From positions 34,015 through 98,014 of the forward strand of contig CALVIG010000001.1 of NCBI GenBank assembly GCA_944329425.1: a DNA stretch of 64,000 nucleotides. The letters run 5' to 3'. The DNA comes from an uncultured Bacilli bacterium. Lineage in GTDB: Bacteria; Bacillota_I; Bacilli_A; RF39; UBA660. The notes beneath the pieces were generated by a model. The model ran no database searches. It was not told the DNA's origin and was given only the letters and a program-made list of their open reading frames with translations. This document shows positions 41,860-62,499 of the stretch, piece after piece. The stretch's first letter is position 1, and each line of letters begins with the position of its first letter. The translations under genes and the position numbers were made by a program.

Positions 41860-43053
41860 TTACCCAATACCCATCTGCTCGGTTTTATTTTCCTTAGTAT
41901 CTATGTTGTAATAATATTTAATATATTTTTCATTAGAATTTTCGTCTAAAGTAGTATCTTCAACAACCAAATTAATTATTGTTTCGTTATCTAATTTCTC
42001 GGTTGTTGACAAAGTTTCATTAAAAACTAAACCATCCGTTATTTTACAAAACTTTGTAATAACATTACCATCATAATTAATTAATTTAAGATAATCGTCA
42101 TTATCAATTACCACGACATAATCATTAAACAACATACATACTTGTTTATATGATTTACTTTTTTTAACTAATTTATTTTCTTTATTATAAATACTAAAAG
42201 TATCATCTTCATTTAAAATAACTACGTTACCATTTTTGGAAACAGCGTAATTAGAGTATCTTTTTCCATCAAACATAAGTTCAAAAGAATCATTATATAT
42301 TTCAGAATCATTACCATTATCATTTGAATAATTTTTTGCGTAATAAACATAATTTTCATTTGAGAAAGGGTGTATTGGTTTGTCAGAATTCCACAATATT
42401 TTACCAGTTTTTGTATTTATTACATAATTTTTTTCGTTTCCTGAATCATCATAAACACCCGCTATTACTTTATTTTGAGAAAATAATACGTTTTCATAAA
42501 CGTACATATAATCATACATAAATTCAGTTGAAAAATCATCTATATCAAAAGAATAATAAGCATATTTGTTATCTAGATTAGAAATTACTAGGCCATATAC
42601 ATTTTCGTTATATCCGCAAATATCAACGCTATTATAAAAAGCATTTGGTAGCTTTAAATTTAAAGCTTCGTTTTTTGAATAATCATATATTATGTATACC
42701 CCATCATAAATTATTACATAGTTTTTCTTTGAATACGTGCCATAAAAATTGCAGTCCTTACTAACGCATCCATATGAAGTTACGTACTCATAATCTTGTA
42801 AGGATTCATCTATATTTTGATCATCCTTTGTTAAAACAACGGAATTATCTAAAGATTTATAAACGTTTATTTTACTGGCATCACCGTTTGGTGTATACCA
42901 ATTTTCTTCTTTTTCATTATTAATCGTTTCCTTTTTACCATTAGAAATATTTTTCTCAAAATTCGTGCTAATAAATGCTATAACAATAATTAATACAAGA
43001 AAAATTAATAATAAAATTAATATCTTTTTCTTTTGCTTTAACACTAATTTCAC
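41860..43053 (-). CDS. membrane-anchored extracytoplasmic hypothetical protein
   Basis: 397 aa with an N-terminal TM and a Tyr/Asn/Asp-rich ectodomain. It lies between divIB and ftsA. Confidence 0.3.
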   Translation of the reverse strand: MKLVLKQKKKILILLLIFLVLIIVIAFISTNFEKNISNGKKETINNEKEENWYTPNGDASKINVYKSLDNSVVLTKDDQNIDESLQDYEYVTSYGCVSKDCNFYGTYSKKNYVIIYDGVYIIYDYSKNEALNLKLPNAFYNSVDICGYNENVYGLVISNLDNKYAYYSFDIDDFSTEFMYDYMYVYENVLFSQNKVIAGVYDDSGNEKNYVINTKTGKILWNSDKPIHPFSNENYVYYAKNYSNDNGNDSEIYNDSFELMFDGKRYSNYAVSKNGNVVILNEDDTFSIYNKENKLVKKSKSYKQVCMLFNDYVVVIDNDDYLKLINYDGNVITKFCKITDGLVFNETLSTTEKLDNETIINLVVEDTTLDENSNEKYIKYYYNIDTKENKTEQMGIG

Positions 43054-45900: not shown

Positions 45901-46219
45901 GTTTTAGAATGAAAAATCACTCTGAATTCAAGCAAACCCCAAATTCATTTTTAAATATTATCAGTATTTAATGTGATATCTTATTCTCATGAGTTTTCTT
46001 TCTCATTTACAATTGTAAGGCCTAGATACGAATAAGATTAGTTTTTTAAACTATTTTCAACTATCTTTAAACATAAGATAGATAATAGATATTAAAAATA
46101 TCGTTTAGAAAGAAACAAACTTTCTTTCTAAATATAATATCTATAGTAAACCTACCTAGGTTAACTTCATTATAACACGTTATTTTGTTTTGTCAACACA
46201 TTTTAATATTATTCTTAAT

Positions 46220-47347
46220 TTAACTATTTTCTAAAAGCCAAACCAAGCCATTATCTTTACTAATAAATATTAATTCTTTTTCCTCATATCCATCTTTATT
46301 TGGATTTATTTGATATACTGAACAATTTATTTTTAACGTGTTTCCATCATAGTAAGGTACATCTTTCACGCTAATGTATTCCGCGCTTTCGTTTTTATAT
46401 TTAAAATTGGCAACTGAAAAAGTTTTACCACCATCATTAGTAACGTATAACCCTGGTCTTGAATTATCTAAATAAATTTTTCCAGTAGATATCGCAAACC
46501 CTAAATTCGTGTCTAAAAAAACAAATTTTGCTTCATTACTAACTTCAATTGTTTTATCCGATATAACATAAAAGTTTTTACCATTATCCTTACTTCTTAA
46601 AACTTCTACTAAAACGTTTTGCCCCAATACATTATCTTGTTTACTAAACCTTAATATCGTATTATTAAATTTCTTTTCATATAAAACTTCTTCATCTTCT
46701 GGTAATATATAATCATTATTTTTATTATAATCATTTGATTCAGTAATATCTTCTTCGTATATAGCTTTATCTATTATTTTTCCATTTTCATCTTTAATAA
46801 AAGTTTCAGTTTTCTTTAACTTTATTTTTCCCTTGCTATCATAATAAGTGTATTTAACACCATCAATAGCCTCAAGATTATCAAAAGGGTCGAAATTCCC
46901 TTCACCAAAATAACCATGTACTTTTACTTTGGTTCCCATTAGTAATGGTCCATAATAATCATAATAGCCAACGTCTACATATTTAAAGGAATTCACTACT
47001 GCCACATATTTTTTATCGTCTAAATTTACCGTATGTTCAGACTGATATTTAAAAACTGATACAAAATTTATAAACGGCATAAAAGTAATTACTAAAATCA
47101 ATATAGAAACAACACACAATGATGAAAATATTATAGCTGATCTTTTATTTTCAGCAACATTATGTATTTGCTGAAATACGCCAACTATAAATCCAATTAT
47201 AGATATTAATATTATAAGAATGATAACCCATATTCTAAATCTTATATTAGTCAAATATAAGATAAAATTAATTAATATATTAATACCTACAAAAATTAAA
47301 TCACATAGAAGTATTTCCGTTTTAAATTTATTAAATATTTTCTTCAT
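46220..47347 (-). CDS. membrane protein with extracytoplasmic BNR/Asp-box repeat domain
   Basis: Three N-terminal TMs, and SKDNGKNF, TNDGGKTFS and SKDNGLVW Asp-box repeats. Confidence 0.45.
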   Translation of the reverse strand: MKKIFNKFKTEILLCDLIFVGINILINFILYLTNIRFRIWVIILIILISIIGFIVGVFQQIHNVAENKRSAIIFSSLCVVSILILVITFMPFINFVSVFKYQSEHTVNLDDKKYVAVVNSFKYVDVGYYDYYGPLLMGTKVKVHGYFGEGNFDPFDNLEAIDGVKYTYYDSKGKIKLKKTETFIKDENGKIIDKAIYEEDITESNDYNKNNDYILPEDEEVLYEKKFNNTILRFSKQDNVLGQNVLVEVLRSKDNGKNFYVISDKTIEVSNEAKFVFLDTNLGFAISTGKIYLDNSRPGLYVTNDGGKTFSVANFKYKNESAEYISVKDVPYYDGNTLKINCSVYQINPNKDGYEEKELIFISKDNGLVWLLENS

Positions 47348-47358
47348 TTTTTCATCAC

Positions 47359-48375
47359 CTACTTTAAGATAATACTTTTCTCATAATTTTCTAAATAATT
47401 TTCTTTAAGTATTAATTTGTGATTCTTTATAACGAATTTTGAAACATTAGGCACTGATATACTCTCATCAGAATTATTTATTTTCGTTCTGTAATAAATT
47501 AATTCATCACCTTTAATTTCAAACGTACCTGATGAAGTTTCAATTATTTTGCTTTCATTTTCACTAATATAACGAATTTCTAAAGTAGCAGTCCATTCAT
47601 TTTCATTATTTTTATTTTCATATTTAGGCAAAAAATAAACAATCAAATTTGAATCTTCACTATATAATGTTTTAAAAGCATTTAATGCTCCTAATTTTTC
47701 ATTATATTCTTTGATTTGTAAAGTATTACAATAATTTCCATTTCTAATATTATAAGAAATTGTATTATATATAAAATTACCTTTAACAGAATAATCAATA
47801 AACGTAATATTAGCATCAGAATCATAATAGTACGTAGTATTATTACAAGAAATATGTTTTAAAGTATTCAAATAATTTTTCATTTCACTCTTTAAAATAT
47901 TTTTTCCTCTTAAGTTCTTGTAAGAATAAACGTTTTCATTGTTCTTCATTAAAAATGAAAATTTAGGAATACCAAGATTAATCAACTTATTGTCATTATG
48001 ATTATACCTAACGTGATTAACATCATATCCAAACGGAATAAGTTTAAATAAAATGATACAAATAATAATAACAATTGGGAGCATAATTAGTGCTATTTTT
48101 TTTATTATTTGTTTTTTTATTTTCTTTTTTTCATTTTTCAAAATTTCTTTAACATCAATATCATTCTTTTTTTCAATTTGAAGAATGTTATAAATGTCCG
48201 TATCTAACTGTTCCGCCAATTTTTCAAGAATAGTGATATCTGGTAAACTTAATCCCCTTTCCCACTTACTAACCGCTTTATCCGTTACAAATAGTTTATC
48301 TCCAAGTTCTTTTTGAGTTAACCCTTTTGATTTTCTAAGTGATGATATAAGCTTGCCTATTTTATTATTGTCCAT
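47359..48375 (-). CDS. membrane-anchored XRE-family HTH transcriptional regulator
   Basis: N-terminal HTH (LRKSKGLTQKELGDKLFVTDKAVSKWERG), a TM at ~residue 95, then an extracytoplasmic domain. Confidence 0.7.
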   Translation of the reverse strand: MDNNKIGKLISSLRKSKGLTQKELGDKLFVTDKAVSKWERGLSLPDITILEKLAEQLDTDIYNILQIEKKNDIDVKEILKNEKKKIKKQIIKKIALIMLPIVIIICIILFKLIPFGYDVNHVRYNHNDNKLINLGIPKFSFLMKNNENVYSYKNLRGKNILKSEMKNYLNTLKHISCNNTTYYYDSDANITFIDYSVKGNFIYNTISYNIRNGNYCNTLQIKEYNEKLGALNAFKTLYSEDSNLIVYFLPKYENKNNENEWTATLEIRYISENESKIIETSSGTFEIKGDELIYYRTKINNSDESISVPNVSKFVIKNHKLILKENYLENYEKSIILK

Positions 48376-48498
48376 AAGATTTCACCTCAATTACATTATA
48401 CTACATAAAAACAAATTCTCACTCTACTGTTGGTTTATTGTTATAAATTATAAAAAATCACTAAAAAACACATAAATAATATGTGTTTTAATAATAGT

Positions 48499-49041
48499 CT
48501 ACAAAAGCAAAATATATTCATAATCGTTTATATACTTATTACCTGGCTTATAATATCTTAGTTCTGTTTTTCGAAATTTAAAACCAAGTTTTTCACAAAC
48601 TCTTTTTGATTTTTCATTTCCTTCATAAAAATGAGCAATCATTTTTTTATATCCAAGTGATTTTAAATATTTTGAAATTTCTTTTAATGCTTCTGGAGCG
48701 TATCCATTTCCCCAATATTTTGGATGAGTGTTATATGATATTTCAATTGACATTTCTTCTTCATTTTCTCTATCCGCTATTATATTAGCTACCGGTTCAT
48801 TTGTATTTTTCAAAAACACGTACCAATCAAAAATTTTATTTTTTTCACATTCCTTATAATACTCTTTTGAATTTTCACCTATAAAATCTATTTCCTTTTC
48901 AAATTTTACAAATTCATTTCTTCCATCAATTCCTGTACATTTGGTTAAATCATATTCATAAATTTTTTTACAAACACTAGATGTTCCTTTGTCTAATATT
49001 AATCTTTTAGTTTCTAGCCTCTTTGTTTCATATTTCCTCAT
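48499..49041 (-). CDS. GNAT family N-acetyltransferase
   Basis: WGNGYAPEALKEI motif. Confidence 0.7.
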   Translation of the reverse strand: MRKYETKRLETKRLILDKGTSSVCKKIYEYDLTKCTGIDGRNEFVKFEKEIDFIGENSKEYYKECEKNKIFDWYVFLKNTNEPVANIIADRENEEEMSIEISYNTHPKYWGNGYAPEALKEISKYLKSLGYKKMIAHFYEGNEKSKRVCEKLGFKFRKTELRYYKPGNKYINDYEYILLL

Positions 49042-49115
49042 TTTTCATCCTCGTACAATTTATTATATGTTATTTATAATTATATACCAATTTTATTATT
49101 TAAAGTATAAGAAAG

Positions 49116-49223
49116 TTAATTTTGTCTATACCTAGATATGTTAAGGATAATCCCCATGGATATGAGGGTGATTATAAGGCTACTACCACCATAACTAAAG
49201 AATGGTAAAGTAACACCTGTAAC
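49116..49223 (-). pseudogene. 3' fragment of split SEDS gene (spoVE/ftsW C-terminus: [35 protein letters not shown])
   Basis: Unannotated in-frame segment encoding the canonical SEDS C-terminal motif. It continues exactly where the 5' fragment at 60890 diverges. Confidence 0.75.
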
Positions 49224-49276
49224 TCTTTTTGTGTTATCAAAAAAATAAGGGTTACACCTATACCGATTATAACTTT

Positions 49277-50893
49277 TTATGCTTGAACCATGTCTTTTGC
49301 TATTTCTGTTAAATTTCTAAATCTTAAATAAACCTTGACATTTTTCTTTTCACCATCTGATATAACTATTCTACTAATTAATTTCTTAATTACACTTTTA
49401 CTTGGATTTTTAAGTGACATAAATTCTTCTACTACCTTTCTACATTTGCAAAATTCTTTTTCATATGTATCACTTGAATAAAGCTTTAGTTTTTCTTCAA
49501 TTTTTTGTTTTTCTTCTTGTAATAACTTAAGTTCTTCTTCATGTTCTTTCGATAGCTTTTTGTATATGTCTACTGATATTACATTATCTAACTTATCATT
49601 ATATAAAGATGAAAGTACTTTATATTTTTTATCAATTTTTTTAGAAACATTTACAAGGTCATTATTTAACTTTTCAACGCCCCTATTAAAATAATAAATA
49701 GCATCTTCTACTAGCTTACTTGAATCATATTTCTTTAAAAATTTACCACCGAGTTCTTTTAAGAAAAGTAATATATCTTCTTCCAAATAATTATAATTGA
49801 TTCTATTAGGTGTACAATTACTATACTTTCCTTTCCGTTGATATAAATTACAATATGTATATCTTGAAACACCCTTTTTCCTTTGCCTTTCTGAAATTCC
49901 CAGATTATGGCCGCAATTACCACATATTAGCAATCCAGAAAGCAAATATTTATCATACTTTTTAACTGAAGATACTCTAGATTTACTATTTAAAATTTTT
50001 TGAACTTCCTGATATTCTTCTTCACTTATTATAGCTTCATGAGTATTTTTTACAATTATTTGATTAGTGCAATCTATTTTTTTTAGTTTTTTAGATGTAT
50101 GACTTGGTTTTTCGTACGTATGTTGAACCATGTTACCTATATACATTTGACTAGTCAAAATATTTTTTACAGTAGAATGTTTCCAAACACCATAACCTTC
50201 ATTTTCCGTCACCAATAATCCTCTATACTCTTTTTTATAGACTATTGGTATTGGAATTTTAGAATCTGTTAATTTTTTGCAGATTCTTGTGATTCCAAGA
50301 CCATCTAGCACCATTTTATAAATCATTCTTACAACTTTAGCTGCCTCTTCATCAATAATTAAATGATGATGATTTGCCGGATCTTTTTTATAACCATAAC
50401 ATGCAAATGAACCAATATAATCTCCTTTTTCTTGTTTGATACGAAAACTAGTTTTAACTTTTTTTGAAACCTCTCTTAAATAAAGGTCATTTACTCCAAG
50501 TCTTATACCAAGCATTGAATCACCAACGTTTGAATCATATGAGTCATTAATTGCAATATATCTAACATCATGTTCCAAAAAATATTCTTCTATATACTGA
50601 CCCGTCTTATACATCTCACGTCCAAGTCTAGATAAATCTTTTGTAATAACACAATTAATAACTCCATTTTCTATGTCTTTTATCATTCGTTCAAAACCTG
50701 GTCTATTAAAATTACCTCCGGAAAATCCGTCATCGACATACTCTCGAACAATATTTAAGCCATTATATTTTGCAAATGAACTATTTATAAGACGTTGACT
50801 TTCTATTGACGAAGATTCATCCTTACCATGTCTGATATCCTCTTTGGATAGTCTTAAATAGTTACCACACTTATAGATTTTATTACCTACCAT
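49277..50893 (-). CDS. large serine recombinase (resolvase catalytic domain + recombinase domain + zinc ribbon + coiled coil)
   Basis: YLRLSKED...SSSIESQR catalytic Ser/Arg region, CGNCGHNL zinc ribbon and a long C-terminal coiled coil, in 538 aa. Confidence 0.85.
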
Positions 50894-50929
50894 TTTTTAG
50901 CTCCTTTCCAATCGGTAGGTTCATTGTAT

Positions 50930-51190
50930 CTACATACAAATATTATCACCTATCTTTGATTTTTGCAAATCATCGTTTTCATTTTTTATTAGTTTTTCAC
51001 TACTCATTTTTTCCTTAAATGATTGCTCTAAAATGACTTTTAATGATTTCCCGGAATCGTCTGGTATAAAAGTAACTTTATAATTTTTTCTTATTTCTTT
51101 ATTCATTATATTATCACCAGTTCTATATATATGATTAAAAATTTCTAATACAACATTATTGCAAACATTAGACATTTTATTTATTTTCAC
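50930..51190 (-). CDS. hypothetical small protein (element-encoded)
   Basis: ORF adjacent to the recombinase. Confidence 0.3.
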   Translation of the reverse strand: MKINKMSNVCNNVVLEIFNHIYRTGDNIMNKEIRKNYKVTFIPDDSGKSLKVILEQSFKEKMSSEKLIKNENDDLQKSKIGDNICM

Positions 51191-51193
51191 CTC

Positions 51194-51550
51194 CTACAAA
51201 TTTTTAATATGTATTTCAATTGAATTTTCTTTTTCTATTAATAAGAATGGTTTATCTTTTAAATGATTTTTAAGAATAAATAATGAAGATTTTTTTAAAT
51301 TACTAAAATGCACCACTAAATACGTTCTTTCATTAGCAACTTTATAATCACAACTTACAATATCTTTAGAGAATAATCTCTCTACTTCTTTTAATATAGG
51401 GTTAAGCATTTTTATATCATGATCTCTAAAATCACTTTTAATATAATCTGATTTAACCTCACTTATTTTTTCAATTGTATAATCGAAGGCACTGAAAATC
51501 CATATAGCACCAATAATGTTTCTTCTTATTTGGGAATTAGCAAAGTACAT
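51194..51550 (-). CDS. hypothetical protein (element-encoded)
   Basis: ORF. Confidence 0.3.
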   Translation of the reverse strand: MYFANSQIRRNIIGAIWIFSAFDYTIEKISEVKSDYIKSDFRDHDIKMLNPILKEVERLFSKDIVSCDYKVANERTYLVVHFSNLKKSSLFILKNHLKDKPFLLIEKENSIEIHIKNL

Positions 51551-51659
51551 TATAAAAGATTAGAAAGCGCTAATGACAAATCAAAATTCATTAGTTTAGA
51601 TAATTTAATAAAACTATCAATCATATTTGATAAAAAAATAGATGATTTCTTAAAATAAT

Positions 51660-51700
51660 AAAAAGTGCATAAGCATTAAAAACTTATGCACTTTATTTTA
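51660..51700 (-). terminator. intrinsic terminator ending the 4-gene cargo operon
   Basis: agtgcataagcattaaaaacttatgcact: a perfect 10-bp stem followed by a T-rich tract on the minus strand. Confidence 0.6.
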
Positions 51701-51713
51701 ATTAAATTTAATA

Positions 51714-52196
51714 TTATCTATTATCAGACAAAACTATATTATTATTTGATTCTATATTGTTTCTAATTATCTTAGAAATATGATTAGGTTTAAAGTTTTC
51801 TTTATCTAAGTCTTCTATTTTTATCCAATGAAATTTATGTTCCTTTTCTACACCTTTATCTATTTCTTTTATTGTAAAAGAATTTTTAGGTAGTTTAGAC
51901 AATGACTTAAGTTTATAATAATAATTAATTTCTTGATTTACTTTACCATCAGTGATATAAATGTTTTCGTTAATACAAAATAAATCTATTATTTCAACAT
52001 CTATTTTTAATTCTTCACGCATTTCTCTTAACATTGCTTGCTTTGTACTTTCTCCAATCTCAACATGTCCACCTGGTAAACAACAACCAATAAATTTTTG
52101 AGTTTCATGGACTAAAAGTCTATCATCTTCTATTAACATTCCACTAACTCTTAATCGAAATTTTCCATTTTTTGTCTTGATTTTTATATCTTCCAT
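51714..52196 (-). CDS. NUDIX hydrolase
   Basis: Nudix box GGHVEIGESTKQAMLREMREELKI. Confidence 0.7.
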   Translation of the reverse strand: MEDIKIKTKNGKFRLRVSGMLIEDDRLLVHETQKFIGCCLPGGHVEIGESTKQAMLREMREELKIDVEIIDLFCINENIYITDGKVNQEINYYYKLKSLSKLPKNSFTIKEIDKGVEKEHKFHWIKIEDLDKENFKPNHISKIIRNNIESNNNIVLSDNR

Positions 52197-52928
52197 TTAA
52201 TATCCTCTTTTCTTCATTTCATTTTCTACAAATTTTATATGTTCTGGCAAATCAACACCAATCGTCTTATAATTAGTATGTAAAAATTTTATTTTATATC
52301 CTTTTTCAAGCATTCTTATCATTTCTATGCCACTTTCTAATTTTTCCAATTCGCTTTTTTTTATGTTTAAAAATTGTTTAAGAACATCATAACGATAACC
52401 ATATAAACCAAGAACTCTATATGAATATCCATACTTAAAATCATGTGGTATAGGTGACCTAGAAAAATACATAGCGAAATTATCCGAGTCTAAAACAACT
52501 TTTACGTTATTTCTATTTTCATGCTCTTCTTTATTCTCTATTTTAGATACCAAACCTACATAACTTATACTATCATTTTCCAAAAGTTCATCTATGATTT
52601 GATTTATGGATTCAGGGTCTATCAATGGCTCGTCTCCTTGTATGTTTAAATATATATCTCCATCCAATTTTTGTGATTCTAAAGCCAATTTCTCTGCTGC
52701 AGTAGTTGCTTTAATATGATCAAGCCTGCATGGTATATTATATTTAACACATACATCATATATTTCATCATCAGGTGTTACTACATATAATTCATCTATT
52801 CTATCAACCTTGCTAGCCTGTTTATATACCCAATAAATCATTGGTTTTTCATTGATTAAAGCTATGGGTTTACCTGGAAATCTTGAACTTCCCATTCTTG
52901 CGGGAATTAATCCAATTATCTTTTTCAT
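52197..52928 (-). CDS. KdsB-like cytidylyltransferase (CMP-3-deoxy-2-ulosonate synthetase family)
   Basis: GLIPARMGSSRFPGKP, NIQGDEPLI, NVKVVLD...AMYFSRSPIP and LGLYGYR all parallel KdsB. Confidence 0.8.
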   Translation of the reverse strand: MKKIIGLIPARMGSSRFPGKPIALINEKPMIYWVYKQASKVDRIDELYVVTPDDEIYDVCVKYNIPCRLDHIKATTAAEKLALESQKLDGDIYLNIQGDEPLIDPESINQIIDELLENDSISYVGLVSKIENKEEHENRNNVKVVLDSDNFAMYFSRSPIPHDFKYGYSYRVLGLYGYRYDVLKQFLNIKKSELEKLESGIEMIRMLEKGYKIKFLHTNYKTIGVDLPEHIKFVENEMKKRGY

Positions 52929-52935
52929 AATACGA

Positions 52936-53958
52936 CTATCTGCTCCTTATTTTTTTTATTAATTTTTTAACTTCTTCATTCTGCTTTTCATTATCAGTAA
53001 TATGCATTATTATGTCATAGTAATAATCTGTGATTAAATCACAATAATCACTTCTTATTTGTTTTTTTAATCTCATAGTTTTTTTAGACTGTGGAAATCC
53101 ACTTAATGGCTTTAAACGAAAGTCTGGATTATCAAATGAAATTTCCATAACTCTAATATTATAATCAGGTGAATTATAATTATCTTTTCTCAAAGATTGC
53201 ATCATGTGATCATATTTTAAATCTAATTTATACTTTTGTATATCATCAGTACTATAAACATCATATATAAACTCTTTTATATTTTTACTAGGTATAGTTA
53301 TATTTTCCGAAGATAAAATATCTATACCGCTTTCTACTTTTGTAATTGATTTTTCTATTTCATCATAGTAATTTCTTGCTGGTGGCCAAAGTAAGCAATA
53401 ATATGGTTTTTTACTTTTAACAAATAATTCATTAAGCTTTTCTTTTATTATGTTAATCTCATTCTCAGTAAAACCATTTTCTATAAACCATGCAAAACCA
53501 TATTTTCTTCTAGAAACATAAGTGTTATATATTCTAACTGGAATTTCTTTCATATCGTGATATAAAGCTAAAGCCAATCTATGAGAGCCATCATGTAAGT
53601 CATAATTCAAATCTGTTTCAAGATGTGAAGAATCATCAAATCCTTTTTCAAATGATTTTATCAATGTCAAAAATCTTTCATCCCAGTTTTCATTTATTCT
53701 TAGTTGTTGCATCTTTCTATAAATATTAAAACCATAATTATTTAATCCATAATATTCATCTATCGCCAAACATTTAACTGCAATGTCAACAGCATTAAAT
53801 TCAGTATTGTCATATTGGGATAAAAATAAATCAGTAGCAGTCAAGTTCAAATCTACAAAATTTTTATCTTTAAATTTTGGAAATTCGGTAGCAGTCCCAT
53901 TTTGATCTATATATTTGTTCAAATACATTCTATAACCTCCCATCCATGTATTTTTCAT
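52936..53958 (-). CDS. hypothetical protein with DGSHR (ParB/Srx-like?) motif
   Basis: 340 aa. LHDGSHRLALAL resembles the DGxxR motif of the ParB/sulfiredoxin fold. It overlaps the upstream gene by 29 nt. Confidence 0.3.
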   Translation of the reverse strand: MKNTWMGGYRMYLNKYIDQNGTATEFPKFKDKNFVDLNLTATDLFLSQYDNTEFNAVDIAVKCLAIDEYYGLNNYGFNIYRKMQQLRINENWDERFLTLIKSFEKGFDDSSHLETDLNYDLHDGSHRLALALYHDMKEIPVRIYNTYVSRRKYGFAWFIENGFTENEINIIKEKLNELFVKSKKPYYCLLWPPARNYYDEIEKSITKVESGIDILSSENITIPSKNIKEFIYDVYSTDDIQKYKLDLKYDHMMQSLRKDNYNSPDYNIRVMEISFDNPDFRLKPLSGFPQSKKTMRLKKQIRSDYCDLITDYYYDIIMHITDNEKQNEEVKKLIKKIRSR

Positions 53959-55717
53959 AATATTCTTTTATGATTTTTTCATTGAATCTACCTTTGTTTT
54001 CTTCGGGTATTGAATTTAATATTTTTTCCATTTGTAAATATGATAAATTTTTATCTAATAAATATTCTGCATACGTTCTATGCATTCTTCTAAATGCAGT
54101 CATACTATATGCAAAATCCTCTTCCCAATTCAAATGCTTTTTTAAACGTAAAATCTCATTTTCCATTATAGAATAAATATTTTCCAATTTATATTTTCTT
54201 TTATTGGTTAAATCATTTATATAATGTGTCATAACCTCAGTTTTTAAGTTACCTGGTGACCTACCTATACCGCTTACTGAGGTATCAATAATAATGTCCT
54301 GTTTAAAAGTATTATTTTCTATTAAAAGTTGAGCAGAAGAGAATGGTTGACTTAAATTATTATGTAGATGAATCCCTATCTTTATATTTTCATTTAATAA
54401 ATGATTCAATAAACTAAGTTTGTTTTTGAAATCTTTATTTAAAAACATACCAAAAGTATCGACAATAGAAAAAACATCCGGATTAATTTCATTTACTTGT
54501 CTTATCAAGTCAACAACACGTTCGTTACTATAACTAGAAAAATTAATAGGATTAACTGAACATATATAACCAAGTTCTTTTACTTTTTTACAATATTCTA
54601 TACCATCGGATATTAAATTGTCATGAAATGAAACTCTAATCATTTTCACCTTACCACTACATTTTTCTAAATTATTAATATTAAATTTATCAACTTGAGT
54701 AAGTAAAGAAAAAATAGAATTACACGAATTATACTTTGATAACAACTTTTCGGCTGATGAAACATTTGGAAACTTTGCCACATCTGAATCATAAACGCAA
54801 TCTTCTAAAAAACCGACCTCTATTATATCGATATTAGCTTTTATTAGTTTATATATAAAATTCTCAATCGTTTTTTTACCAAACATCGATTTATTAAGAT
54901 GACCCCCATCTCTTAAAGAACAATCTAAGATTTTAATATTTTCATAGTTAACTTGACTATGTATCAAATTAAAATAATTGCAAAGAAATTTAGCGACTCC
55001 ATCATCGTTGTTTGAAAATGTACTAAATTTTATATTATCATTTATTTCTTTCGATGAGTTTTCCATTCTAATGCCGATATCTGAATTTTTCAAACTTTCT
55101 AAATCTGACAAATCATCACCAAATACCATAGTTTTGTACTTTTTCTTTTGTTTTTCCAGTATTTTTAAAATTCCATTCCATTTATTAGTTTCTTTTGGCA
55201 AAATTCTTATCAGATGATTTTTATTATCATAGCTAACATCAGCTAAATCTATAATTTTATTTTTAATAATATCATAGTCTTTTTTAGAACCTCTAACCAA
55301 AAACTTATAATTATCATAACTTTCTATTGCTTTAGATATGGTTAAAGTTGTATCTTCAATAATATCAATATCACTATTATTAGTACAAAATGATGAGTAC
55401 AAATTTTCACTTATAATATCATAATTATTCTGTTTTAAGATTCTTATTATTTCTTTTGAAGTTTTCTTTGGAAAACTATTATGGTAAATTACGTTATACT
55501 TTTGGTCACAAATAAAATTTCCATTAAATGCTGATATGTAATCCGCATCAATATAATTAGCATATTCAATTGTCCTTTTGTAACTTCTTGAAGTACTTAT
55601 AATAATTTTATTGTTACACATTTTACAATCAGCTAAAATTCGTTTAGTATAACTTGATATTTTTCCTTTATTATTCAAAAGTGTCCCATCTAAATCTACA
55701 ATTATAAAATAGTTCAT
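53930..55717 (-). CDS. fusion protein: Cof-type HAD phosphatase (N) + HMGL-like pyruvate-utilising aldolase/synthase TIM barrel (C)
   Basis: IIVDLDGTLL and VFGDDLSDLESL HAD motifs, then KILDCSLRDGGHLN...IDIIEVGF, the HMGL-like N-terminal signature. Confidence 0.7.
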   Translation of the reverse strand: MNYFIIVDLDGTLLNNKGKISSYTKRILADCKMCNNKIIISTSRSYKRTIEYANYIDADYISAFNGNFICDQKYNVIYHNSFPKKTSKEIIRILKQNNYDIISENLYSSFCTNNSDIDIIEDTTLTISKAIESYDNYKFLVRGSKKDYDIIKNKIIDLADVSYDNKNHLIRILPKETNKWNGILKILEKQKKKYKTMVFGDDLSDLESLKNSDIGIRMENSSKEINDNIKFSTFSNNDDGVAKFLCNYFNLIHSQVNYENIKILDCSLRDGGHLNKSMFGKKTIENFIYKLIKANIDIIEVGFLEDCVYDSDVAKFPNVSSAEKLLSKYNSCNSIFSLLTQVDKFNINNLEKCSGKVKMIRVSFHDNLISDGIEYCKKVKELGYICSVNPINFSSYSNERVVDLIRQVNEINPDVFSIVDTFGMFLNKDFKNKLSLLNHLLNENIKIGIHLHNNLSQPFSSAQLLIENNTFKQDIIIDTSVSGIGRSPGNLKTEVMTHYINDLTNKRKYKLENIYSIMENEILRLKKHLNWEEDFAYSMTAFRRMHRTYAEYLLDKNLSYLQMEKILNSIPEENKGRFNEKIIKEYYEKYMDGRL

Positions 55718-55745
55718 AATTCACCCCACAAAATATATTTTTATA

Positions 55746-55812
55746 TAAAAAAAGGTGGCAAACACTTAAGTGTTTGCCACCATGAAAATACTGCCACCAT
55801 TTGGGCAAACAC
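55746..55812 (-). promoter_or_regulatory. transcription attenuator (terminator/antiterminator) in leader of cargo operon
   Basis: Terminator ggtggcaaacac-ttaa-gtgtttgccacc+T8 (55754-55781). An upstream gtgtttgccc (55803-55812) can pair with the terminator 5' arm. Confidence 0.55.
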
Positions 55813-55839
55813 AACACCCAAATTGATTTAATTGCTTTT

Positions 55840-55869
55840 AAAATACAGTATTTACCAAATATTGTCAAT
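55840..55869 (-). promoter_or_regulatory. sigma-A-like promoter (TTGACA-N17-TATTTT with TG)
   Basis: ttgacaatatttggtaaatactgtatttt, upstream of the attenuator. Confidence 0.4.
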
Positions 55870-55934
55870 ACTTTTATATAAAAATTATTAAATATTCTTT
55901 AAAAAGTAATTTTTTCATTATTTTTATATCAGTT

Positions 55935-57773
55935 TTATAACAGTTTAGCTATTACTCTTTCTATTTCATCTGTTATATCTTCTTTTAGCACAATATCACT
56001 AAAACCATCATCTAAATAGTATTTTTTAAAATGTTCTTTATCTTTTTCTAACATTGCAACAACTGGTACTTTAAACTTCTTATTCTCCTTTAATTTCTCT
56101 AATGTTGCTAAGGCTGATGTTCCTTTTAACTCATCATCAATTATTATTAAATTATAAAACTCTCCTGCTTTTAATCTATCTATGCAATCTTTACCAGACA
56201 TTGTTGTATTAATATCAATATTATATTTTCCTAAAATATTAGAAATCGTAAATAACTCTTCTTTATTATCATCAACCACCAAAACTCTTTTTCTTCCATA
56301 AACATCTGATGAATATTTTTCAATATCTTTCATTATATCAGTTAGCTCTTCTATTTTACATTTTTGATCTATAACTATTGTAAATGTTGTTCCTTTATCT
56401 TCTTCACTTTTTATGTTGAAACTTCCACCTAATAACTTAATAATTTTTATTGAAACTTTTAAGTCAACGTCTAGTTTATCAAGCTTACTAGTATCACTTT
56501 CATTTAATTCGGATTTATCATCCAATATGTCATTGATTTTTTCTATGTCCATTCCAATACCAGTATCTTCTATGTTTATAATGATTCTTGCAACATCATA
56601 TCTTACTATGGCATCAATATATATCCTTATATATCCTTTTTTTGTATTTTCTATGCAATTCAAAATAACTGACATAAGTACCTGTTTAAACTTAACATTA
56701 TCACCATTAAGACTATTTGGAACATTACTACTTACTTTAAAATCTAATGCAATGTTTTTATCTTTAATCGCATTTTGGATAAGGCCTTTTATCTCATTAA
56801 AGAAAACAGATGTATTATAATAATCTTCGTTTACCTTTATTTTATTAGCATCCATTGATGATATATCTAATATATTATTTAATCTAAATAATATACCATT
56901 TGCATTATCACCTATAATTCTGACCGCATCTTTCTTATCAATATCATTATCTAACTTATCAAAAGCTTTTGTAATTCCGATTATATTTTTAGTTGGTGCT
57001 TTTATTTCTTGAGATGTTTCAAATAAAAATCTAGATTTATCTTCTATTTGATCTTCTAGTAACTCTCTATTCCTTAAAAGTTCATTTACCATTTTAAGAT
57101 CAGGGTTTTCTATCGTAAAATACATAAGTACCGTAACAAAAGCAAAAGCAGAATTAATTACTGTTATACCAGGATTAATTTGCCTTATTACAAAAACAAA
57201 TATCATCATTAAAATTAACATAAAAAGTGGATAATACTTTTTATCTGTTATATGTTTTATATTTGAACAAACACTAAAAATATCAATTATTATAAATAAT
57301 CCACCCATTAAAAGTAAAACGTTAGTAGCCATACCATATGAATAAATGTAATTACCATCGTTAAAATAATAAAGTGGTAATTTAATAACAATTATAGCCA
57401 TTATTACATAAATAATTGTTAGCACACCAATTATACTTTTCCTAGTTTTCTTTAAGCGTTCTTTAAATTTTTCTCTACTTTCAAACGAAATAAAAAACAT
57501 ATATTCAGTAAATAAAAATTCCCATAATAATAAATAAACTAAAAATGCTCTATTAATTATTTCATTTAAAATTCTATAAGTACTAGATACATCTTTATGA
57601 GCTACAAAGAAAAAACACAAAAGTTCTAAAACCAAACCTATCATTGTTATAATAACAAGTCTACTATATAATTTATTTTCTGTATTTTTAAGTTTGCTTT
57701 TCGAAAAATAAACAGTTCCTACAAGTAAACAAAAAAGTAGCATACAACAAATAACTGTTATTCCTATTACCAT
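55935..57773 (-). CDS. hybrid sensor histidine kinase/response regulator with degenerate H-box (His replaced by Gln)
   Basis: Multi-TM N-terminal sensor. The DHp helix FLFETSQEIKAPTKNIIG aligns to FLANMSHELRTPLNAIIG, followed by HATPase G-boxes (DTGIGM, GGSFNIKSEEDKGTTF) and a C-terminal REC domain (VLVVDDN...IIIDDEL). Confidence 0.8.
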   Translation of the reverse strand: MVIGITVICCMLLFCLLVGTVYFSKSKLKNTENKLYSRLVIITMIGLVLELLCFFFVAHKDVSSTYRILNEIINRAFLVYLLLWEFLFTEYMFFISFESREKFKERLKKTRKSIIGVLTIIYVIMAIIVIKLPLYYFNDGNYIYSYGMATNVLLLMGGLFIIIDIFSVCSNIKHITDKKYYPLFMLILMMIFVFVIRQINPGITVINSAFAFVTVLMYFTIENPDLKMVNELLRNRELLEDQIEDKSRFLFETSQEIKAPTKNIIGITKAFDKLDNDIDKKDAVRIIGDNANGILFRLNNILDISSMDANKIKVNEDYYNTSVFFNEIKGLIQNAIKDKNIALDFKVSSNVPNSLNGDNVKFKQVLMSVILNCIENTKKGYIRIYIDAIVRYDVARIIINIEDTGIGMDIEKINDILDDKSELNESDTSKLDKLDVDLKVSIKIIKLLGGSFNIKSEEDKGTTFTIVIDQKCKIEELTDIMKDIEKYSSDVYGRKRVLVVDDNKEELFTISNILGKYNIDINTTMSGKDCIDRLKAGEFYNLIIIDDELKGTSALATLEKLKENKKFKVPVVAMLEKDKEHFKKYYLDDGFSDIVLKEDITDEIERVIAKLL

Positions 57774-57845
57774 CTAATCACTCCTAATAAAATATTTACT
57801 ACTTTTACTACCATACTACTTTTTTATTATAACACTTTATAAAAT

Positions 57846-57875
57846 AAAAAAGATAGAAAATACCTATCTTTTGTA
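57846..57875 (-). terminator. intrinsic terminator after acyl-CoA synthetase gene
   Basis: aagatagaaaatacctatctt plus a T-run on the minus strand. Confidence 0.45.
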
Positions 57876-57883
57876 GTTTTTTG

Positions 57884-59782
57884 TTATTTTTTTATTAGTT
57901 TTTTAGTATTTTGTTTTTGTTCATCCTGTTTTTCCAACGCAAGATAATCAATTTTTCCAATAGGAGTCAAAGGCAAACTATCATTAAATTCTACCTCACT
58001 AGGCTGATAATATTCAGGAAGTTCTTTTTGGCACATTGCAAATATTTCTTCTTCTATCTTATTTGTATCATAAGCATTATCTTTTAATACAACATGTACT
58101 TTTGGTACTTTACCTTGCGAAAACTCTAAGTCTCTTATACCAACTACCTTGCATGCCAAAACCATTGGATGCTTAATTACAATATCTTCTATTAAACTCG
58201 GAAATACCTTAAAACCATCTGCTCTTATTATCATTCTTTTTAGTCTATCGACAATAAACAAGTTACCATCGGCATCCATGTAACCAACATCACCAGAATG
58301 CACCCAAGTCAAACCATCTTCGTGTTTTATTAATATTTTATTAGTTTCTTCTTCATTTTTAAAGTAACCAAGCATAGTATTAGGGCCAGTTATACAAACT
58401 TCACCTTTCTCATCATATCCTAACTCTTCACCGGTTTTTGGATCAAAAATGGATATTACCGTGTTAGGAAATGGTATTCCAACACTACCAAGCTTATTAT
58501 TTTCATTAGATGTACAAGCCGATACCGCAGCATTAACTTCCGTCATTCCATAACCTTTTACAACTTTATAATTACAGTTATGTTCTTTTAAGAACTTATT
58601 AGTATCTTCTTCTAACCCCTCATCCATCTTATCTCCTCCAACTGTTGGAGCAATTATATAAGATAAATCTTCGTTTGCTAGCTTTTTACTATGAATTATA
58701 TTTCCATAATGAGATGGAACACCTACCATATGATTTGGTCTATTTTCTATTAATAATTCATCAAATTTTTTAGGATCAAATTGTGGTATTAATATAACTT
58801 CCATACCACAAGCTAATGGTAAATGTAATCCATTACCGATTCCATACGCTATAAATGGTGGCATTATATTTAACCAATTATGTTCTCTTTTGAAATCATA
58901 TCCTGCATTTTCACACTGAAATGAAGCAGCATTAACACTAAAGTTGGATAAAACAACTCCTTTGGATGGACCTGTTGTACCACCAGTATGAACTATTAAT
59001 AATGGTTTATCTTTTTCATACTTCGGATATGGCTCATAATCCTTTGTTTTACCTGCTTTAAAAAACTTAGGCCATGAAATACATTCACCACTTTTTGCAA
59101 ATTTACTTTCATTTTTTTTCATGTCTTTAAAGTAGTCTAATATTATATCTTTCTTTTTTGGCTCTTTTGTACCTTTATTATTAGCTTCTTCTTTTTTATC
59201 TTCATACATGCTATTTATATCTTTAGAAGCTTTTTTAAGCATTATTCCTAAAGGTAAAGAATCAGTTGGTGATACTGTAACAATTTTTTCTACTGTTGTT
59301 TTTTTCTTAACATCTTTTGCTTTATCAGCTGCAACATCAATTATTATAAGCATTTTTGATTCTGCTTCATTAATATAACTTTCTATTCCATCTTTGCTAG
59401 TTCTAGGGTCGACCATGTTAGCTACTGCACCTATTTTACTCAAAGCATAGTAAACATATATAGTTTCAGGAACAGTCGGCATAGAAACCGTTACTATGTC
59501 ACCTTCTTTTACTCCATAAGCTCTAAAGGCTCTTGCGGTTTGGTCTATGTTGTTAATCATTTCACCATAAGTGATTTTCCTACCAAAATAATTTAAAGCC
59601 ACTCTATTAGGATAATTCTTATTATTATCTACTATGTATTCATATATGGTCTTTTCAGGTAGTTTTTTATTTAGTACTTCTTTGTCGTAATATTTAAGCC
59701 ATGGTTTATCAATCGATGGCTTACCAGTTAATTTTTCCATAATTTCCCCCATTGTATAATTATATTTACTGCATTTATAATA
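57884..59782 (-). CDS. AMP-dependent synthetase/ligase (long-chain acyl-CoA synthetase-like); start moved to MEKLTGKP (the ORF-track 5' extension is probably spurious)
   Basis: AMP-binding motif LIVHTGGTTGPSKGV, and YGMTE and GDVGYMDADGNLFIVDRLK motifs. A GGGGGA SD precedes the internal ATG, and a terminator hairpin lies inside the annotated 5' extension. Confidence 0.8.
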   Translation of the reverse strand, partial: YYKCSKYNYTMGEIMEKLTGKPSIDKPWLKYYDKEVLNKKLPEKTIYEYIVDNNKNYPNRVALNYFGRKITYGEMINNIDQTARAFRAYGVKEGDIVTVSMPTVPETIYVYYALSKIGAVANMVDPRTSKDGIESYINEAESKMLIIIDVAADKAKDVKKKTTVEKIVTVSPTDSLPLGIMLKKASKDINSMYEDKKEEANNKGTKEPKKKDIILDYFKDMKKNESKFAKSGECISWPKFFKAGKTKDYEPYPKYEKDKPLLIVHTGGTTGPSKGVVLSNFSVNAASFQCENAGYDFKREHNWLNIMPPFIAYGIGNGLHLPLACGMEVILIPQFDPKKFDELLIENRPNHMVGVPSHYGNIIHSKKLANEDLSYIIAPTVGGDKMDEGLEEDTNKFLKEHNCNYKVVKGYGMTEVNAAVSACTSNENNKLGSVGIPFPNTVISIFDPKTGEELGYDEKGEVCITGPNTMLGYFKNEEETNKILIKHEDGLTWVHSGDVGYMDADGNLFIVDRLKRMIIRADGFKVFPSLIEDIVIKHPMVLACKVVGIRDLEFSQGKVPKVHVVLKDNAYDTNKIEEEIFAMCQKELPEYYQPSEVEFNDSLPLTPIGKIDYLALEKQDEQKQNTKKLIKK

Positions 59783-59974
59783 TAACATCTTTAATAAATA
59801 ATTGCAATTATATAAAAAAGAAACTAATAAAATAGTTTCCTTAGTTTCTTCTTGAACGGAAGTACACATGTGTAATATTTCTTATTGCTAAGTATAATAT
59901 AACATATTTTTCAAAGATTAGCAATAAAATAACATATAATTTTTATATACATTACTATCTTATAAACAGCTATT

Positions 59975-60679
59975 TTATACACCAAAATGAAAATCAACGC
60001 TTAAATTATAATGATATTTTTTATTTTTATAATATTTCTTTTTTCTAGCAAAGATATAACCGACTCTATGTTTATGATTAACATTGTGAAACGGATGAGC
60101 ATTATGAATTGTAAGCTCATCTCTTTCATGATTATCAATAATTTCCCAGGATGAACCAAATATTTTAGATATGAAAGATTTTCTAAAATACTGATTTTTA
60201 GGATAATTAATATAATCATTTTCATTTACTGCGATATGATACATAATATATACAAATCCATCTTCTTTAACTGATGACATTATTTTTTTTATTTTACTTC
60301 TCAAATCAATGTTTTTATTTCTATCTAAATGAAGTGACCTATATACATAAACAAAATCATATTTTTTATTATTATTGCTTGTATAAAAATTAGTCTCATT
60401 AACTTTTACATATTTACTTAAATTAAAAGTATTTATTTTATCTAATAATCCAATAACTTTATAATTTTCTACTGTTCCACCATATAAAAACTTTTTATTT
60501 TCTTCATAACAATCTAAATAAATATGTTTTCTAGCAAAGGGTAAAACATGAATTCCATCTAATGCATCAATAACTAAAACATTAATATCTCTATTATAAT
60601 ACTTTTTTAAAAAATCTATATAACAATAGCACGTTCTTTGAGCTTCTCCAAAAACGCTTCCATAACCTTTTTTCCCCAT
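59975..60679 (-). CDS. hypothetical protein (possible Rossmann-fold methyltransferase-like)
   Basis: The ORF has only a weak VLVIDALDG motif. Confidence 0.3.
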   Translation of the reverse strand: MGKKGYGSVFGEAQRTCYCYIDFLKKYYNRDINVLVIDALDGIHVLPFARKHIYLDCYEENKKFLYGGTVENYKVIGLLDKINTFNLSKYVKVNETNFYTSNNNKKYDFVYVYRSLHLDRNKNIDLRSKIKKIMSSVKEDGFVYIMYHIAVNENDYINYPKNQYFRKSFISKIFGSSWEIIDNHERDELTIHNAHPFHNVNHKHRVGYIFARKKKYYKNKKYHYNLSVDFHFGV

Positions 60680-60889
60680 ACATTACCTCCATTAAAATAG
60701 ATACAATGAACCCTTATTTTAAATGTTGTAATGTTAATGTAACCTCGAATTTCTTATTTAAAAATAAAGAACTTTTTCTTAATAAAATTATATTTAAACT
60801 CTTTTTGAAAGCTAGGGGTTACAACACATATTATTTTTTCCTTTTATTTTAAGGCATTTTTTAACAGTTGTAAAAAGTTTATAATTAAA

Positions 60890-61897
60890 TGTTACCCCCG
60901 TTACCGGAACTAGTCCGACAACTACTGCTAAATTAAGTAACGTTTGAAATGATAACTGAAAAATTATGCCAAATATTAAGAATTTTGAAAAAGTATCTGG
61001 TGCTTTAATTGATATTTTTACGCTTCTTAATATTATTATTAAAAACAAGGTAGCTACTGTTATTATTCCTATTATCCCTAGTTCTTCAGATATTATTGAA
61101 AATATAAAATCAGTTTGGGGTTCTGGCAAATAAAAATGTTTTTGAATCGAGTTTCCGAATCCAAGGCCAAATAACCCGCCTGGACCAATAGCAAATAAAG
61201 ACTGAATTGATTGAAAACCGGTTCCTAAAGGATCACTCCATGGATTTAAAAAGGATATTATACGGTTAACCCTGTAGGGTGCTATTAAAACCAAAATAAC
61301 GACTCCTACCATTCCAATTAAGCCAATTTTTATAAAAAACGAAAAATTAACACCCGAAATAAATAGCATTGCAACTATGGTCATAACAAGAATAGTACCA
61401 GTACCAAAATCAGGTTGTAACATAATAAGTCCAAAGGCAATCATGGTAATAGCTAAAATCGGAAAAACACCTTTAGTTATTGATTTTATGGTTTTAGGAT
61501 TATTACTAATATATTTACTAGTAAAAATTATCAAAGCTAATTTCATAAACTCACTTGGTTGTACACCTAGTCCCCCAATACCAAACCAGCTTCTAGAACC
61601 ATTTCTTATGCTACCAATTCCAGGTATTATTACTAATATCAAAAGAACAAAACAAGCAAATAAAATAAGATTAGATTTTTTTAAATAATATTTATAGGGT
61701 ATTTTACTAACTATTATCATTAAAACAACACCAATTATAAAAAACGCACTTTGTAATATAACATAATGAAATTTATCATTAAACTTATACTCTGCCCAAA
61801 TACTTGAGGCTGAAAAAATCATGATTATTCCATATATTGATGTTATTAATATGGTTATTAAAAGTGGTAAGTCAAACTTTTTTCTCAATAAAATCAC
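60890..61897 (-). pseudogene. 5' fragment (336 codons) of split SEDS gene spoVE/ftsW; the called ORF reads through into 25 element-encoded codons
   Basis: SEDS motifs QPSEFMKLA, LQPDFGTG, NPWSDPLGTGFQSIQSLFAIGPGGLFGLGFGNS and FYLPEPQTDFIFSII. Conservation stops abruptly after VTGVT, where LPFISYGGSS is expected. Confidence 0.8.
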
Positions 61898-61977: not shown

Positions 61978-62499
61978 CTAATTATGTGTTGTTATTTTTT
62001 TATACACTTCTAAAACCGGTAACATTTCATAAGCAAGACTCCTAAACCTTGGAAATTTTTTAACATGGTCAATTAAAGTTTCCTCTACTTCACTTAATTT
62101 AACAAAGCATAATTTAAACTCGTTTTTTCTTTCATAGTCACTTATATTAATATTATCGTTATTTATAACCGTACTTTTTTTATAAACAAAATAAATCATG
62201 ATGTTTAGCCTGTTTTCATTTGTTCTAAAATAATTTTTAGAATAATGTTTAACCTTCATAAAAGGATAAAAATCATCTTTTTTAGCTTCTATACCAGTTT
62301 CTTCTTTAACTTCCCTTATAAGCCCATCATACACGTCTTCATCTTCTTTTAGGTGTCCTCCAGGGAACTGGTAATCATCATCACAGTAAGCAAGTAAAAT
62401 CTCATCATTATCATTTATCATTATGGCTTTTACCCTTGTTACAACTTCTTTTACATCATCATCATTTAAATTATCTTTATTTATTATTAATTCTTTCAT
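61978..62499 (-). CDS. NUDIX hydrolase
   Basis: FPGGHLKEDEDVYDGLIREVKEETGI Nudix box. Confidence 0.65.
   Translation of the reverse strand: MKELIINKDNLNDDDVKEVVTRVKAIMINDNDEILLAYCDDDYQFPGGHLKEDEDVYDGLIREVKEETGIEAKKDDFYPFMKVKHYSKNYFRTNENRLNIMIYFVYKKSTVINNDNINISDYERKNEFKLCFVKLSEVEETLIDHVKKFPRFRSLAYEMLPVLEVYKKITTHN

Follow-up and report, generated by a model that had tools for sequence, protein, structure and literature searches.

A spoVE gene split by a large serine recombinase element of conjugative descent in an uncultured Bacilli bacterium, and its possible excision during sporulation

The sporulation genes known to be interrupted by a recombinase-bearing insert form a short list, drawn almost entirely from cultured Bacillus or Clostridium and prophage-derived. 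In skin, a defective prophage which interrupts the mother-cell gene sigK, the gene for a large serine recombinase (LSR) lies at the element edge beside the 3′ gene fragment and is itself preceded by a small gene (SpoIVCA and Skr in Bacillus subtilis; CD1231 and CD1234 in Clostridioides difficile), and precise excision restores the open reading frame (ORF) (PMC6957869, PMC5025042, preprint 10.1101/2022.02.25.481979). SPbeta, a 134-kb phage, likewise represents an active mobile element which serves as the intervening element of a mother-cell gene, spsM, and encodes a recombination directionality factor (SprB), with a documented sigma-E/K promoter, upstream of its integrase (SprA) (PMC4191935, PMC5499854), while gin, a small non-prophage element carrying little beyond its recombination genes, interrupts gerE in Bacillus cereus ATCC 10987, its excision during sporulation having been shown experimentally (PMC5595907). 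Recombinase-bearing inserts, those described being prophage-like, have also been reported in spoVFB (vfbin), spoVR (vrin), yabG (yin), kamA (phi3T), cotJC, and spoIIID (PMC4191935, PMC10747680, PMC6957869, preprint 10.1101/2022.02.25.481979). Here, we describe a stretch of 64,000 nucleotides from an uncultured Bacilli bacterium (GenBank assembly GCA_944329425.1, contig CALVIG010000001.1, positions 34,015 to 98,014; hereafter, the window), in which a gene of the SEDS family, assigned below to spoVE, is split by an 11,681-bp element encoding its own LSR.

The spoVE element differs from skin in its target and in its LSR, which is only distantly related; it is, furthermore, of conjugative descent and spreading horizontally, and its sporulation-specific excision is proposed here only. 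It differs from SPbeta in lacking phage genes and from gin in both target gene and recombinases, the smallest members of its family (2.7 to 3.4 kb) being comparable to gin in their gene content. The literature searched describes interrupted sigK, spsM, spoVFB, spoVR, gerE, yabG, kamA, cotJC, and spoIIID and includes neither an interrupted spoVE or spoVD nor a natural conjugative-type element in a sporulation gene, absence there not being proof; within that scope, the statement of an earlier note on this DNA, made from the sequence alone, that spoVE is not among the described interrupted sporulation genes is upheld. Recombinase-restored interrupted sporulation genes are, as such, known; the target spoVE and the conjugative-element lineage are new. 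A core cell wall polymerase gene is thereby added to the list, as a target common to an integrase clade across dozens of uncultured gut species whose elements are still moving between species, and insertions of a second integrase family occur in its partner gene, spoVD.

The split spoVE gene and its attachment sites

All features of the split gene and of the element given below lie on the minus strand. The SEDS reading of the ORF at 60812..61897 runs to GLVPVTGVT and is then followed by an unrelated 25-residue tail (FNYKLFTTVKKCLKIKGKNNMCCNP*). Based on ORF translation and comparison with the intact allele, the 5′ part of spoVE (60897..61897) comprises codons 1 to 331 together with the core of the left attachment site, attL, its likely start being the TTG at 61888, which matches the intact allele P0001, and not the GTG at 61897, where the mechanical ORF begins. 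The 3′ part (49116..49215) holds the third base of the Gly331 codon, codons 332 to 363, and the stop; read within 49223..49116, it encodes the most conserved SEDS motif (LPF-SYGGSS) and the last transmembrane helix. The gene is broken at the Gly331 codon (VT-G-VT), within the conserved SEDS domain, and the intervening 11,681 bp, as delimited by alignment to the empty site and counting one copy of the GG core, correspond to 49216..60896.

The empty site is available from four contigs from other samples (L001 to L004, with approximately 98% nucleotide identity to the window), which carry an uninterrupted 363-amino-acid (aa) gene at the same place. While the truncated ORF spans positions 5 to 327 of the 356 positions of Pfam PF01098 (332 bits), the 366-aa product spliced in silico spans positions 5 to 355 (381 bits). 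Precise excision in silico is predicted to recreate an intact ORF, the joined sequence being that of the conspecific intact allele, and the lost segment aligns with the C-terminal helix of the solved FtsW and RodA structures. The earlier note had read a SEDS gene split by some 11.7 kb, a 538-aa LSR gene beside the 3′ fragment, and a 366-aa splice product whose fold is completed by the detached segment; these claims hold on translation with all their coordinates, the crossover now being refined to the GG of Gly331, and the uninterrupted gene that it anticipated in related genomes is that of L001 to L004.

Serine integrases cross over at a non-palindromic dinucleotide with short inverted repeats around it, attB being unlike attP, and need a separate directionality factor in order to recombine attL with attR. 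The sites of the element display this LSR-type anatomy: in an alignment of the empty site with both junctions, attL, attR, and attB have no bases in common but the GG of the Gly331 codon. This central dinucleotide is located at 60897..60898 in attL (CCGGTAACG-GG-GGTAACATTTAA) and at 49216..49217 in attR (GAGTTACA-GG-TGTTACTTTACC). The attB site reads ..GGTAAC-G-GG-T-GTTAC.., with inverted GTAAC/GTTAC arms (junction sequence CCGGTAACGGGTGTTACTTTACC), attL reads ..GGTAAC-G-GG-G-GTAACATTTAA.., and attR reads ..GAGTTAC-A-GG-T-GTTACTTTACC..; the deduced attP is GTTAC-A-GG-G-GTAAC, whose arms are reversed relative to those of attB (junction sequence GAGTTACAGGGGTAACATTTAA).

Since the window derives from a metagenome assembly, an assembly chimera was considered, together with the decayed SEDS duplicate which the earlier note had itself named as an alternative. 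Two contigs, one of 242,610 bp in ENA ERZ24773375, sample BRZ_HR, and one from run ERR4096449, match the window at 100% identity, and the same codon-level junction recurs on dozens of independent contigs from other species; the identical junction in independent samples, coupled with the conspecific empty site, argues against chance or an assembly artifact. Each spoVE half shares 97 to 98% identity with the intact allele found in the same gene context in conspecific strains, which argues against a decayed duplicate, and no second SEDS gene was found within the 64-kb window. Both explanations are refuted by these observations, and we accord them a negligible probability.

The 90%-identity cluster of the SpoVE of the window holds 67 members, and allele counts were obtained from the 15 members listed. 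Among these, intact alleles occur on 27 contigs and three interrupted alleles, with distinct read-through tails, on 30 contigs, about half of the sampled contigs of the species being occupied at the site. One of the interrupted alleles is represented by the 7.3-kb element of strain L170, which carries an ABC transporter, a coupling-protein fragment, a small ORF, and an LSR gene.

The SEDS gene of B. subtilis which is located between mraY/murD and murG is spoVE. In the window, the minus-strand gene order is a SpoVD-like penicillin-binding protein (PBP) gene, mraY, a NUDIX gene, the spoVE 5′ part, the insert, the spoVE 3′ part, genes for GNAT, helix-turn-helix (HTH), and BNR-like proteins, murG, murB, ftsQ, a gene without assignment, ftsA, ftsZ, spoIIGA (38520..39305), and sigE (37824..38519). 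The intact conspecific allele passes the NCBIfam spoVE model TIGR02615 narrowly (450.8 bits, cut-off 448.8), its scores for ftsW and rodA being 397.8 and 310.9 bits, and the SpoVD-like PBP upstream of mraY clearly passes the spoVD equivalog TIGR02214 (746 bits, cut-off 688). The interrupted gene is, on this narrow pass and the supporting synteny with B. subtilis, probably spoVE, in agreement with the position in the dcw gene order, and the presence of sigE and spoIIGA, to which the earlier note had pointed.

The integrase family and its conjugative ancestry

The LSR (538 aa, 49277..50893) is intact and matches Resolvase (PF00239), Recombinase (PF07508), and Zn_ribbon_recom (PF13408), all over cut-off, which places it in the LSR class, whose members combine these three domains in one protein of some 450 to 700 aa, and confirms its earlier designation; its R14-L15-S16 residues are invariant in a 20-sequence alignment of the family. 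The gene sits at the element edge, directly upstream of the detached spoVE 3′ piece. Immediately upstream of it is a conserved small ORF with a 58-aa core (50930..51106; 81 aa from the ATG at 51175), for which family searches in Pfam, PHROGs, and NCBIfam returned nothing significant and which we regard as a candidate recombination directionality factor gene. There follows, still further upstream, what is left of a type IV secretion coupling protein (T4CP) gene, its final 95 codons (51197..51481), 82% identical to the full 629-aa T4CP of L167. A 118-aa ORF at 51194..51550 was entertained as a gene or directionality factor and rejected, as it represents this 3′ remnant. An intrinsic-terminator-like hairpin with a 13-bp stem (51662..51694) parts the recombination module from the cargo.

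The best NCBIfam match of the LSR is XisF, which acts on the fdxN element in Anabaena heterocysts and is likewise a serine recombinase restoring a gene in a terminally differentiated cell. The score of 99.7 bits against a cut-off of 375 indicates that the LSR is not a member of that family, and organism and target differ.

A profile search of species-representative genomes with the LSR returned 580 relatives, of which the best 80 were inspected; almost all of these 80 belong to metagenome-assembled genomes of uncultured gut “Bacilli bacterium,” some being labeled Mycoplasma sp. CAG:877, Acholeplasma sp. CAG:878, Clostridium sp. CAG:710/914, or Ca. Faecisoma. Of 72 loci with LSRs of at least 45% identity, 62 are assessable, having sequence beyond the LSR gene. 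A spoVE 3′ fragment occurs within approximately 100 nucleotides after the LSR gene, on the same strand, in 59 of the 62 assessable loci, the LSRs of which are 47 to 98% identical. Both spoVE halves are present at 25 loci, with inserts of 2.7 to 10.7 kb, and the break is at the Gly331 codon in all 25. No spoVE fragment was found near LSRs of 39% identity or less (L078 to L085). Domain disruption by independent events within one integrase clade is the hallmark by which regulated gene integrity is recognized (Mageeney et al. 2020, PMC7192596); the 59 of 62 loci, with at least three different elements at the site within one species, display it. The DUF4368 domain, which is typical of multi-targeting TndX-like enzymes (PMC10083194), is absent from most LSRs of the family. 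The family could also be mined for numerous natural LSR/attB/attP combinations that have a defined GG core.

An ORF of 41 to 63 aa directly upstream of the LSR gene, seen in about 56 loci, forms the conserved core of these elements. The small ORF and the LSR gene stay intact where all else is lost, as in the window copy with its T4CP remnant and in minimal elements of 2.7 to 3.4 kb, whose only other component is a RelB-like/ParE-like pair. In minimal elements of 2.7 to 3.0 kb, the sole cargo is, as read from their sequences, this putative pair of RelB/DinJ-type antitoxin and ParE/RelE-type toxin look-alikes (L042 8979-9624, L043 9015-9622, L054 9084-9728, and L055 4017-4557). In L011 (185-9134), the small ORF and the recombinase match each occur twice, the second copy being followed by the spoVE 3′ fragment, and the locus may represent a tandem pair of elements at the site.

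Three members bear on whether the insertion could be functionally neutral, such that the 336-aa truncated SEDS protein would work, or another SEDS protein would replace SpoVE, with no excision needed. In L029 (6945-11745) and L034 (1921-6948), the left edge of the element supplies its own spoVE 3′ end (QEERL[RK]*), the gene being whole after integration, and L026 (6768-11757) combines a duplicated host 3′ end and an intact spoVE with a frameshifted LSR, the only clearly frameshifted LSR adjoining a spoVE fragment. The replacement 3′ ends suggest that the C terminus matters, and they and the host duplication are sensible only if it is needed. Although the element supplies a stop directly after Gly331 in many subfamilies, thus giving a clean truncation, the truncated protein lacks its final transmembrane helix together with the block that is best conserved in the family (LPF-SYGGSS), and we consider neutrality very improbable.

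Integrative conjugative or mobilizable elements which use serine recombinases are known from Firmicutes, examples being Tn5397 with TndX and Tn4451 with TnpX. Relatives of the window element are organized in the same manner, pairing a MobL relaxase, a type IV secretion system coupling protein, a VirB4-like ATPase, and an M23 peptidase with the LSR, whereas the spoVE family is strictly specific to one codon. L167 belongs to a different species (flanks 76% identical), yet its LSR is 98% identical to that of the window and the 2.4 kb of its right end are 95.7% identical; its cargo includes the VirB4-like ATPase, M23 peptidase, MobL relaxase, and coupling protein. MobL, T4CP, and VirB4-like genes are present in L167, L007, L018, L048, and L052, relaxases being found in the latter four, and a coupling-protein gene lies just upstream of the small ORF in 23 family loci. 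Of the relaxase, coupling protein, and mating-pore genes which define an integrative conjugative or mobilizable element, the window element retains the 95-codon T4CP remnant only, while its relatives carry transfer genes; it is, therefore, a derivative rather than a functional conjugative member, and its gene content identifies it as a decayed, non-conjugative relative of such elements, now with apparent metabolic and signaling cargo.

The earlier description of the element as skin-like stands as regards the recombinase-bearing split gene and the LSR-type attachment sites and fails as regards a defective prophage. The element contains no phage genes, its only PHROG match being the integrase, and no close LSR relatives were found in phage records or viral contigs, in which the best LSRs are 41% and 46% identical, respectively; the lack of phage structural, lysis, or replication genes and of close phage relatives rules out a defective prophage in the strict skin-like sense. 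No match to the element was found in the plasmid collection. Its mobility is apparent from elements which are 97 to 99% identical over 4 to 7 kb in hosts with flanks of approximately 74% identity.

Is excision developmental?

The LSRs of this family, of conjugative descent, integrate at a single site, the GG of the Gly331 codon of spoVE, the gene for a sporulation-specific SEDS peptidoglycan polymerase, and it is proposed that the elements are excised in the sporulating mother cell. In the integrated state, spoVE would be off, because the protein would lack its C-terminal transmembrane helix and best-conserved SEDS motif, and this state would be harmless in growth, because spoVE is used only in the mother cell in model sporeformers. 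The LSR and the small protein, the candidate directionality factor, would then recombine attL with attR, releasing a circle and recreating the exact spoVE gene, as occurs for skin in sigK, SPbeta in spsM, and gin in gerE, while the forespore chromosome would keep the element. We judge this reading, in which excision would be developmentally timed, to be somewhat better than an even proposition. If it is correct, cortex synthesis in these bacteria would be gated by DNA rearrangement.

The principal alternative is plain insertional inactivation with no developmental program, in which the conserved SEDS motif serves as a broad-host-range landing pad that is harmless to growth, and carriers are sporulation defective unless the element excises for transfer, such defective lineages persisting for a while in the gut and being constantly regenerated by horizontal transfer. 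Mobile elements would then be a frequent, reversible cause of sporulation loss in the gut, which bears on transmission. We consider this alternative unlikely, although a serious contender. It is consistent with the conjugative descent of the family, in the intact relatives of which the small ORF and LSR gene end the row of transfer genes, and with the presence/absence polymorphism at the site within one species. Developmental excision is favored over it by the fidelity of a deep integrase clade, spanning 47 to 98% LSR identity, to one spoVE site; by the persistence of an intact small ORF and LSR gene in elements without any transfer genes; and by the coincidence of the only pseudogenized LSR, that of L026, with a repaired spoVE. 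The occupied site is, moreover, common, as a knockout lethal to transmission should not be, spoIIGA and sigE remain intact next to it in carriers, and the layout matches that of skr-spoIVCA and sprB-sprA.

The developmental reading also draws on a second split gene, in that an unrelated LSR family splits spoVD, likewise a mother-cell gene, in the same lineage. In L170 to L172 and L002, all of the window's species, what remains of the SpoVD-like PBP begins at about residue 412, and the fragment is directly preceded by a different LSR of 553 aa, 26% identical to the spoVE LSR (L170 5926-8221, with the LSR gene at 5926-7587, and also in L171, L172, and L002). The relatives of this LSR are very numerous; those in other species likewise have a PBP 3′ fragment and then mraY downstream, and an ORF of 64 to 68 aa upstream of the LSR gene (L173 10001-12296; L176 to L178 10001-12296). 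The spoVD-splitting element carries glycan-synthesis cargo. In the window's own contig, the SpoVD-like PBP looks intact; the split junction would be near window position 64344, which is outside the window. Two unrelated integrase families have, by these sequence assignments, apparently settled on both partner genes of cortex synthesis, those of the SpoVE polymerase and the SpoVD transpeptidase, and annotation pipelines will label such spoVE and spoVD genes truncated or pseudogenes. Strain L170 carries insertions in both genes, as would be expected under insertional inactivation if further hits are neutral once sporulation has been lost. A more far-reaching version of the developmental reading, which we regard as speculative and quite unlikely, would place SpoVE and SpoVD both under regulated gene integrity by two unrelated LSR families, the spoVE family excising in the doomed mother cell to restore sporulation and launch transfer, by conjugation or DNA release on lysis, thus coupling sporulation to horizontal gene flow.

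The B. subtilis spoVE gene possesses sigma-E promoters and is known to be expressed in the mother cell, and spoIVCA requires both sigma-E and SpoIIID (PMC517825). Upstream of the small ORF, by 45 to 48 nucleotides, a TCATT[AT]-N13-16-[CA]ATA block is present in 33 of 56 loci, compared with approximately 2% of background windows. We take this block to resemble the sigma-E consensus. A sigma-70 promoter scan gave no enrichment over shuffles. A conserved AATGTCTAA box was considered as a SpoIIID site and rejected, as in most loci it represents the last codons and stop of the coupling-protein gene. Transcription of the LSR gene by read-through from the spoVE promoter in the window is unlikely because two terminator-like hairpins intervene, that at 51662..51694 and another after the kinase gene of the cargo (55754..55781, a 12-bp stem with 7 GC pairs, then a T run).

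Several observations weigh against developmental excision. The promoter evidence for sporulation-specific expression is weak, most of all for the copy in the window itself, in which a weak promoter-like block (TTGTATTA ... CATATATA, 51126..51153) upstream of the small ORF aligns with the family block but has a diverged −35 side; the sigE/sigK-type promoter which the earlier note had envisaged upstream of the recombinase gene is to that extent only partly borne out. CATA at −40 to −18 occurs in 34% of small-ORF and spoVE upstream regions versus 10% of the background, a modest enrichment, uncorrected for shared ancestry. Sporulation of these uncultured hosts is itself presumed from their genes. 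No direct evidence of excision was found: in exact scans of metagenome and viral collections, neither the deduced attP of the window element nor that of the commonest subfamily was matched, a result which says nothing either way, given the expected rarity of excised circles, and no sample holding both integrated and excised forms was seen. Distances among the LSRs show no correspondence with those among the host SpoVE proteins (Spearman −0.15), and LSRs 0 to 3% apart are found in hosts whose SpoVE differs by 30 to 40%, near-identical elements in such hosts indicating that transfer is recent. The detached 3′ fragments are all in frame to the normal stop, with a dN/dS of approximately 0.15 across 48 loci, which had been taken as proof of use in the split state; this argument was withdrawn after the co-phylogeny test revealed recent horizontal transfer, since conserved fragments may then reflect only recent insertion. 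The weak promoter evidence, the empty attP scans, and the strong recent transfer without co-phylogeny count likewise as points in favor of plain insertional inactivation.

Cargo and neighboring genes

At the left end of the element is a 234-aa ORF without a family match (59975..60679), homologs of which occupy the same position in seven other family elements and in L170; no other cargo common to family members was found. It is followed by genes for an AMP-binding acyl-CoA-ligase-like enzyme (57884..59869; 661 aa, a 618-aa start being preferred by gene callers), a membrane hybrid histidine kinase with a receiver domain (55935..57773, 612 aa), a fusion of a HAD-IIB phosphatase and an HMGL-like aldolase (53930..55717, 595 aa), a 340-aa protein without a family match (52936..53958), a KdsB-like CMP-sugar cytidylyltransferase (52197..52928, 243 aa), and a NUDIX hydrolase (51714..52196, 160 aa). 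The region at 52197..55717, specifying the phosphatase-aldolase fusion, the 340-aa protein, and the cytidylyltransferase, and then the NUDIX gene has the appearance of a small activated-sugar pathway; no homologs of the 52197..55717 cargo were found in other family elements. The NUDIX hydrolase of the element is unrelated to that of the host (61978..62499), which is encoded between mraY and spoVE and is also present in the empty-site strains.

A 2.9-kb block (46205..49112) begins a few bases past the spoVE stop and is missing from the conspecific L001 to L004 and from L167. It encodes a GNAT acetyltransferase (48499-49041), a membrane HTH-XRE protein (47359-48375), and a BNR-like protein (46220-47347), and neither repeats nor a recombinase were seen in it. 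Because its HTH protein resembles one inside the L170 spoVE element (35% identity), the block may be what an earlier element left behind.

Within the host gene cluster, murD is not present between mraY and spoVE. A 397-aa ORF without matches (41860..43053) lies between ftsQ and ftsA, and the gene after sigE is not sigG but a 489-aa ORF (36318..37787) that matches no family, both ORFs being kept in the empty-site strains. The window also encodes a ComGC-like prepilin-type pilin (32824..33279) and a ComEC/Rec2-type metallo-beta-lactamase-domain protein (29606..30538), com-type genes which hint at DNA uptake, a possible entry route for elements without transfer genes. An ABC-F protein (24307..25914) exceeds, at 438.6 bits, the NCBIfam cut-off of 380 for ABC-F proteins of the ribosomal-protection type.

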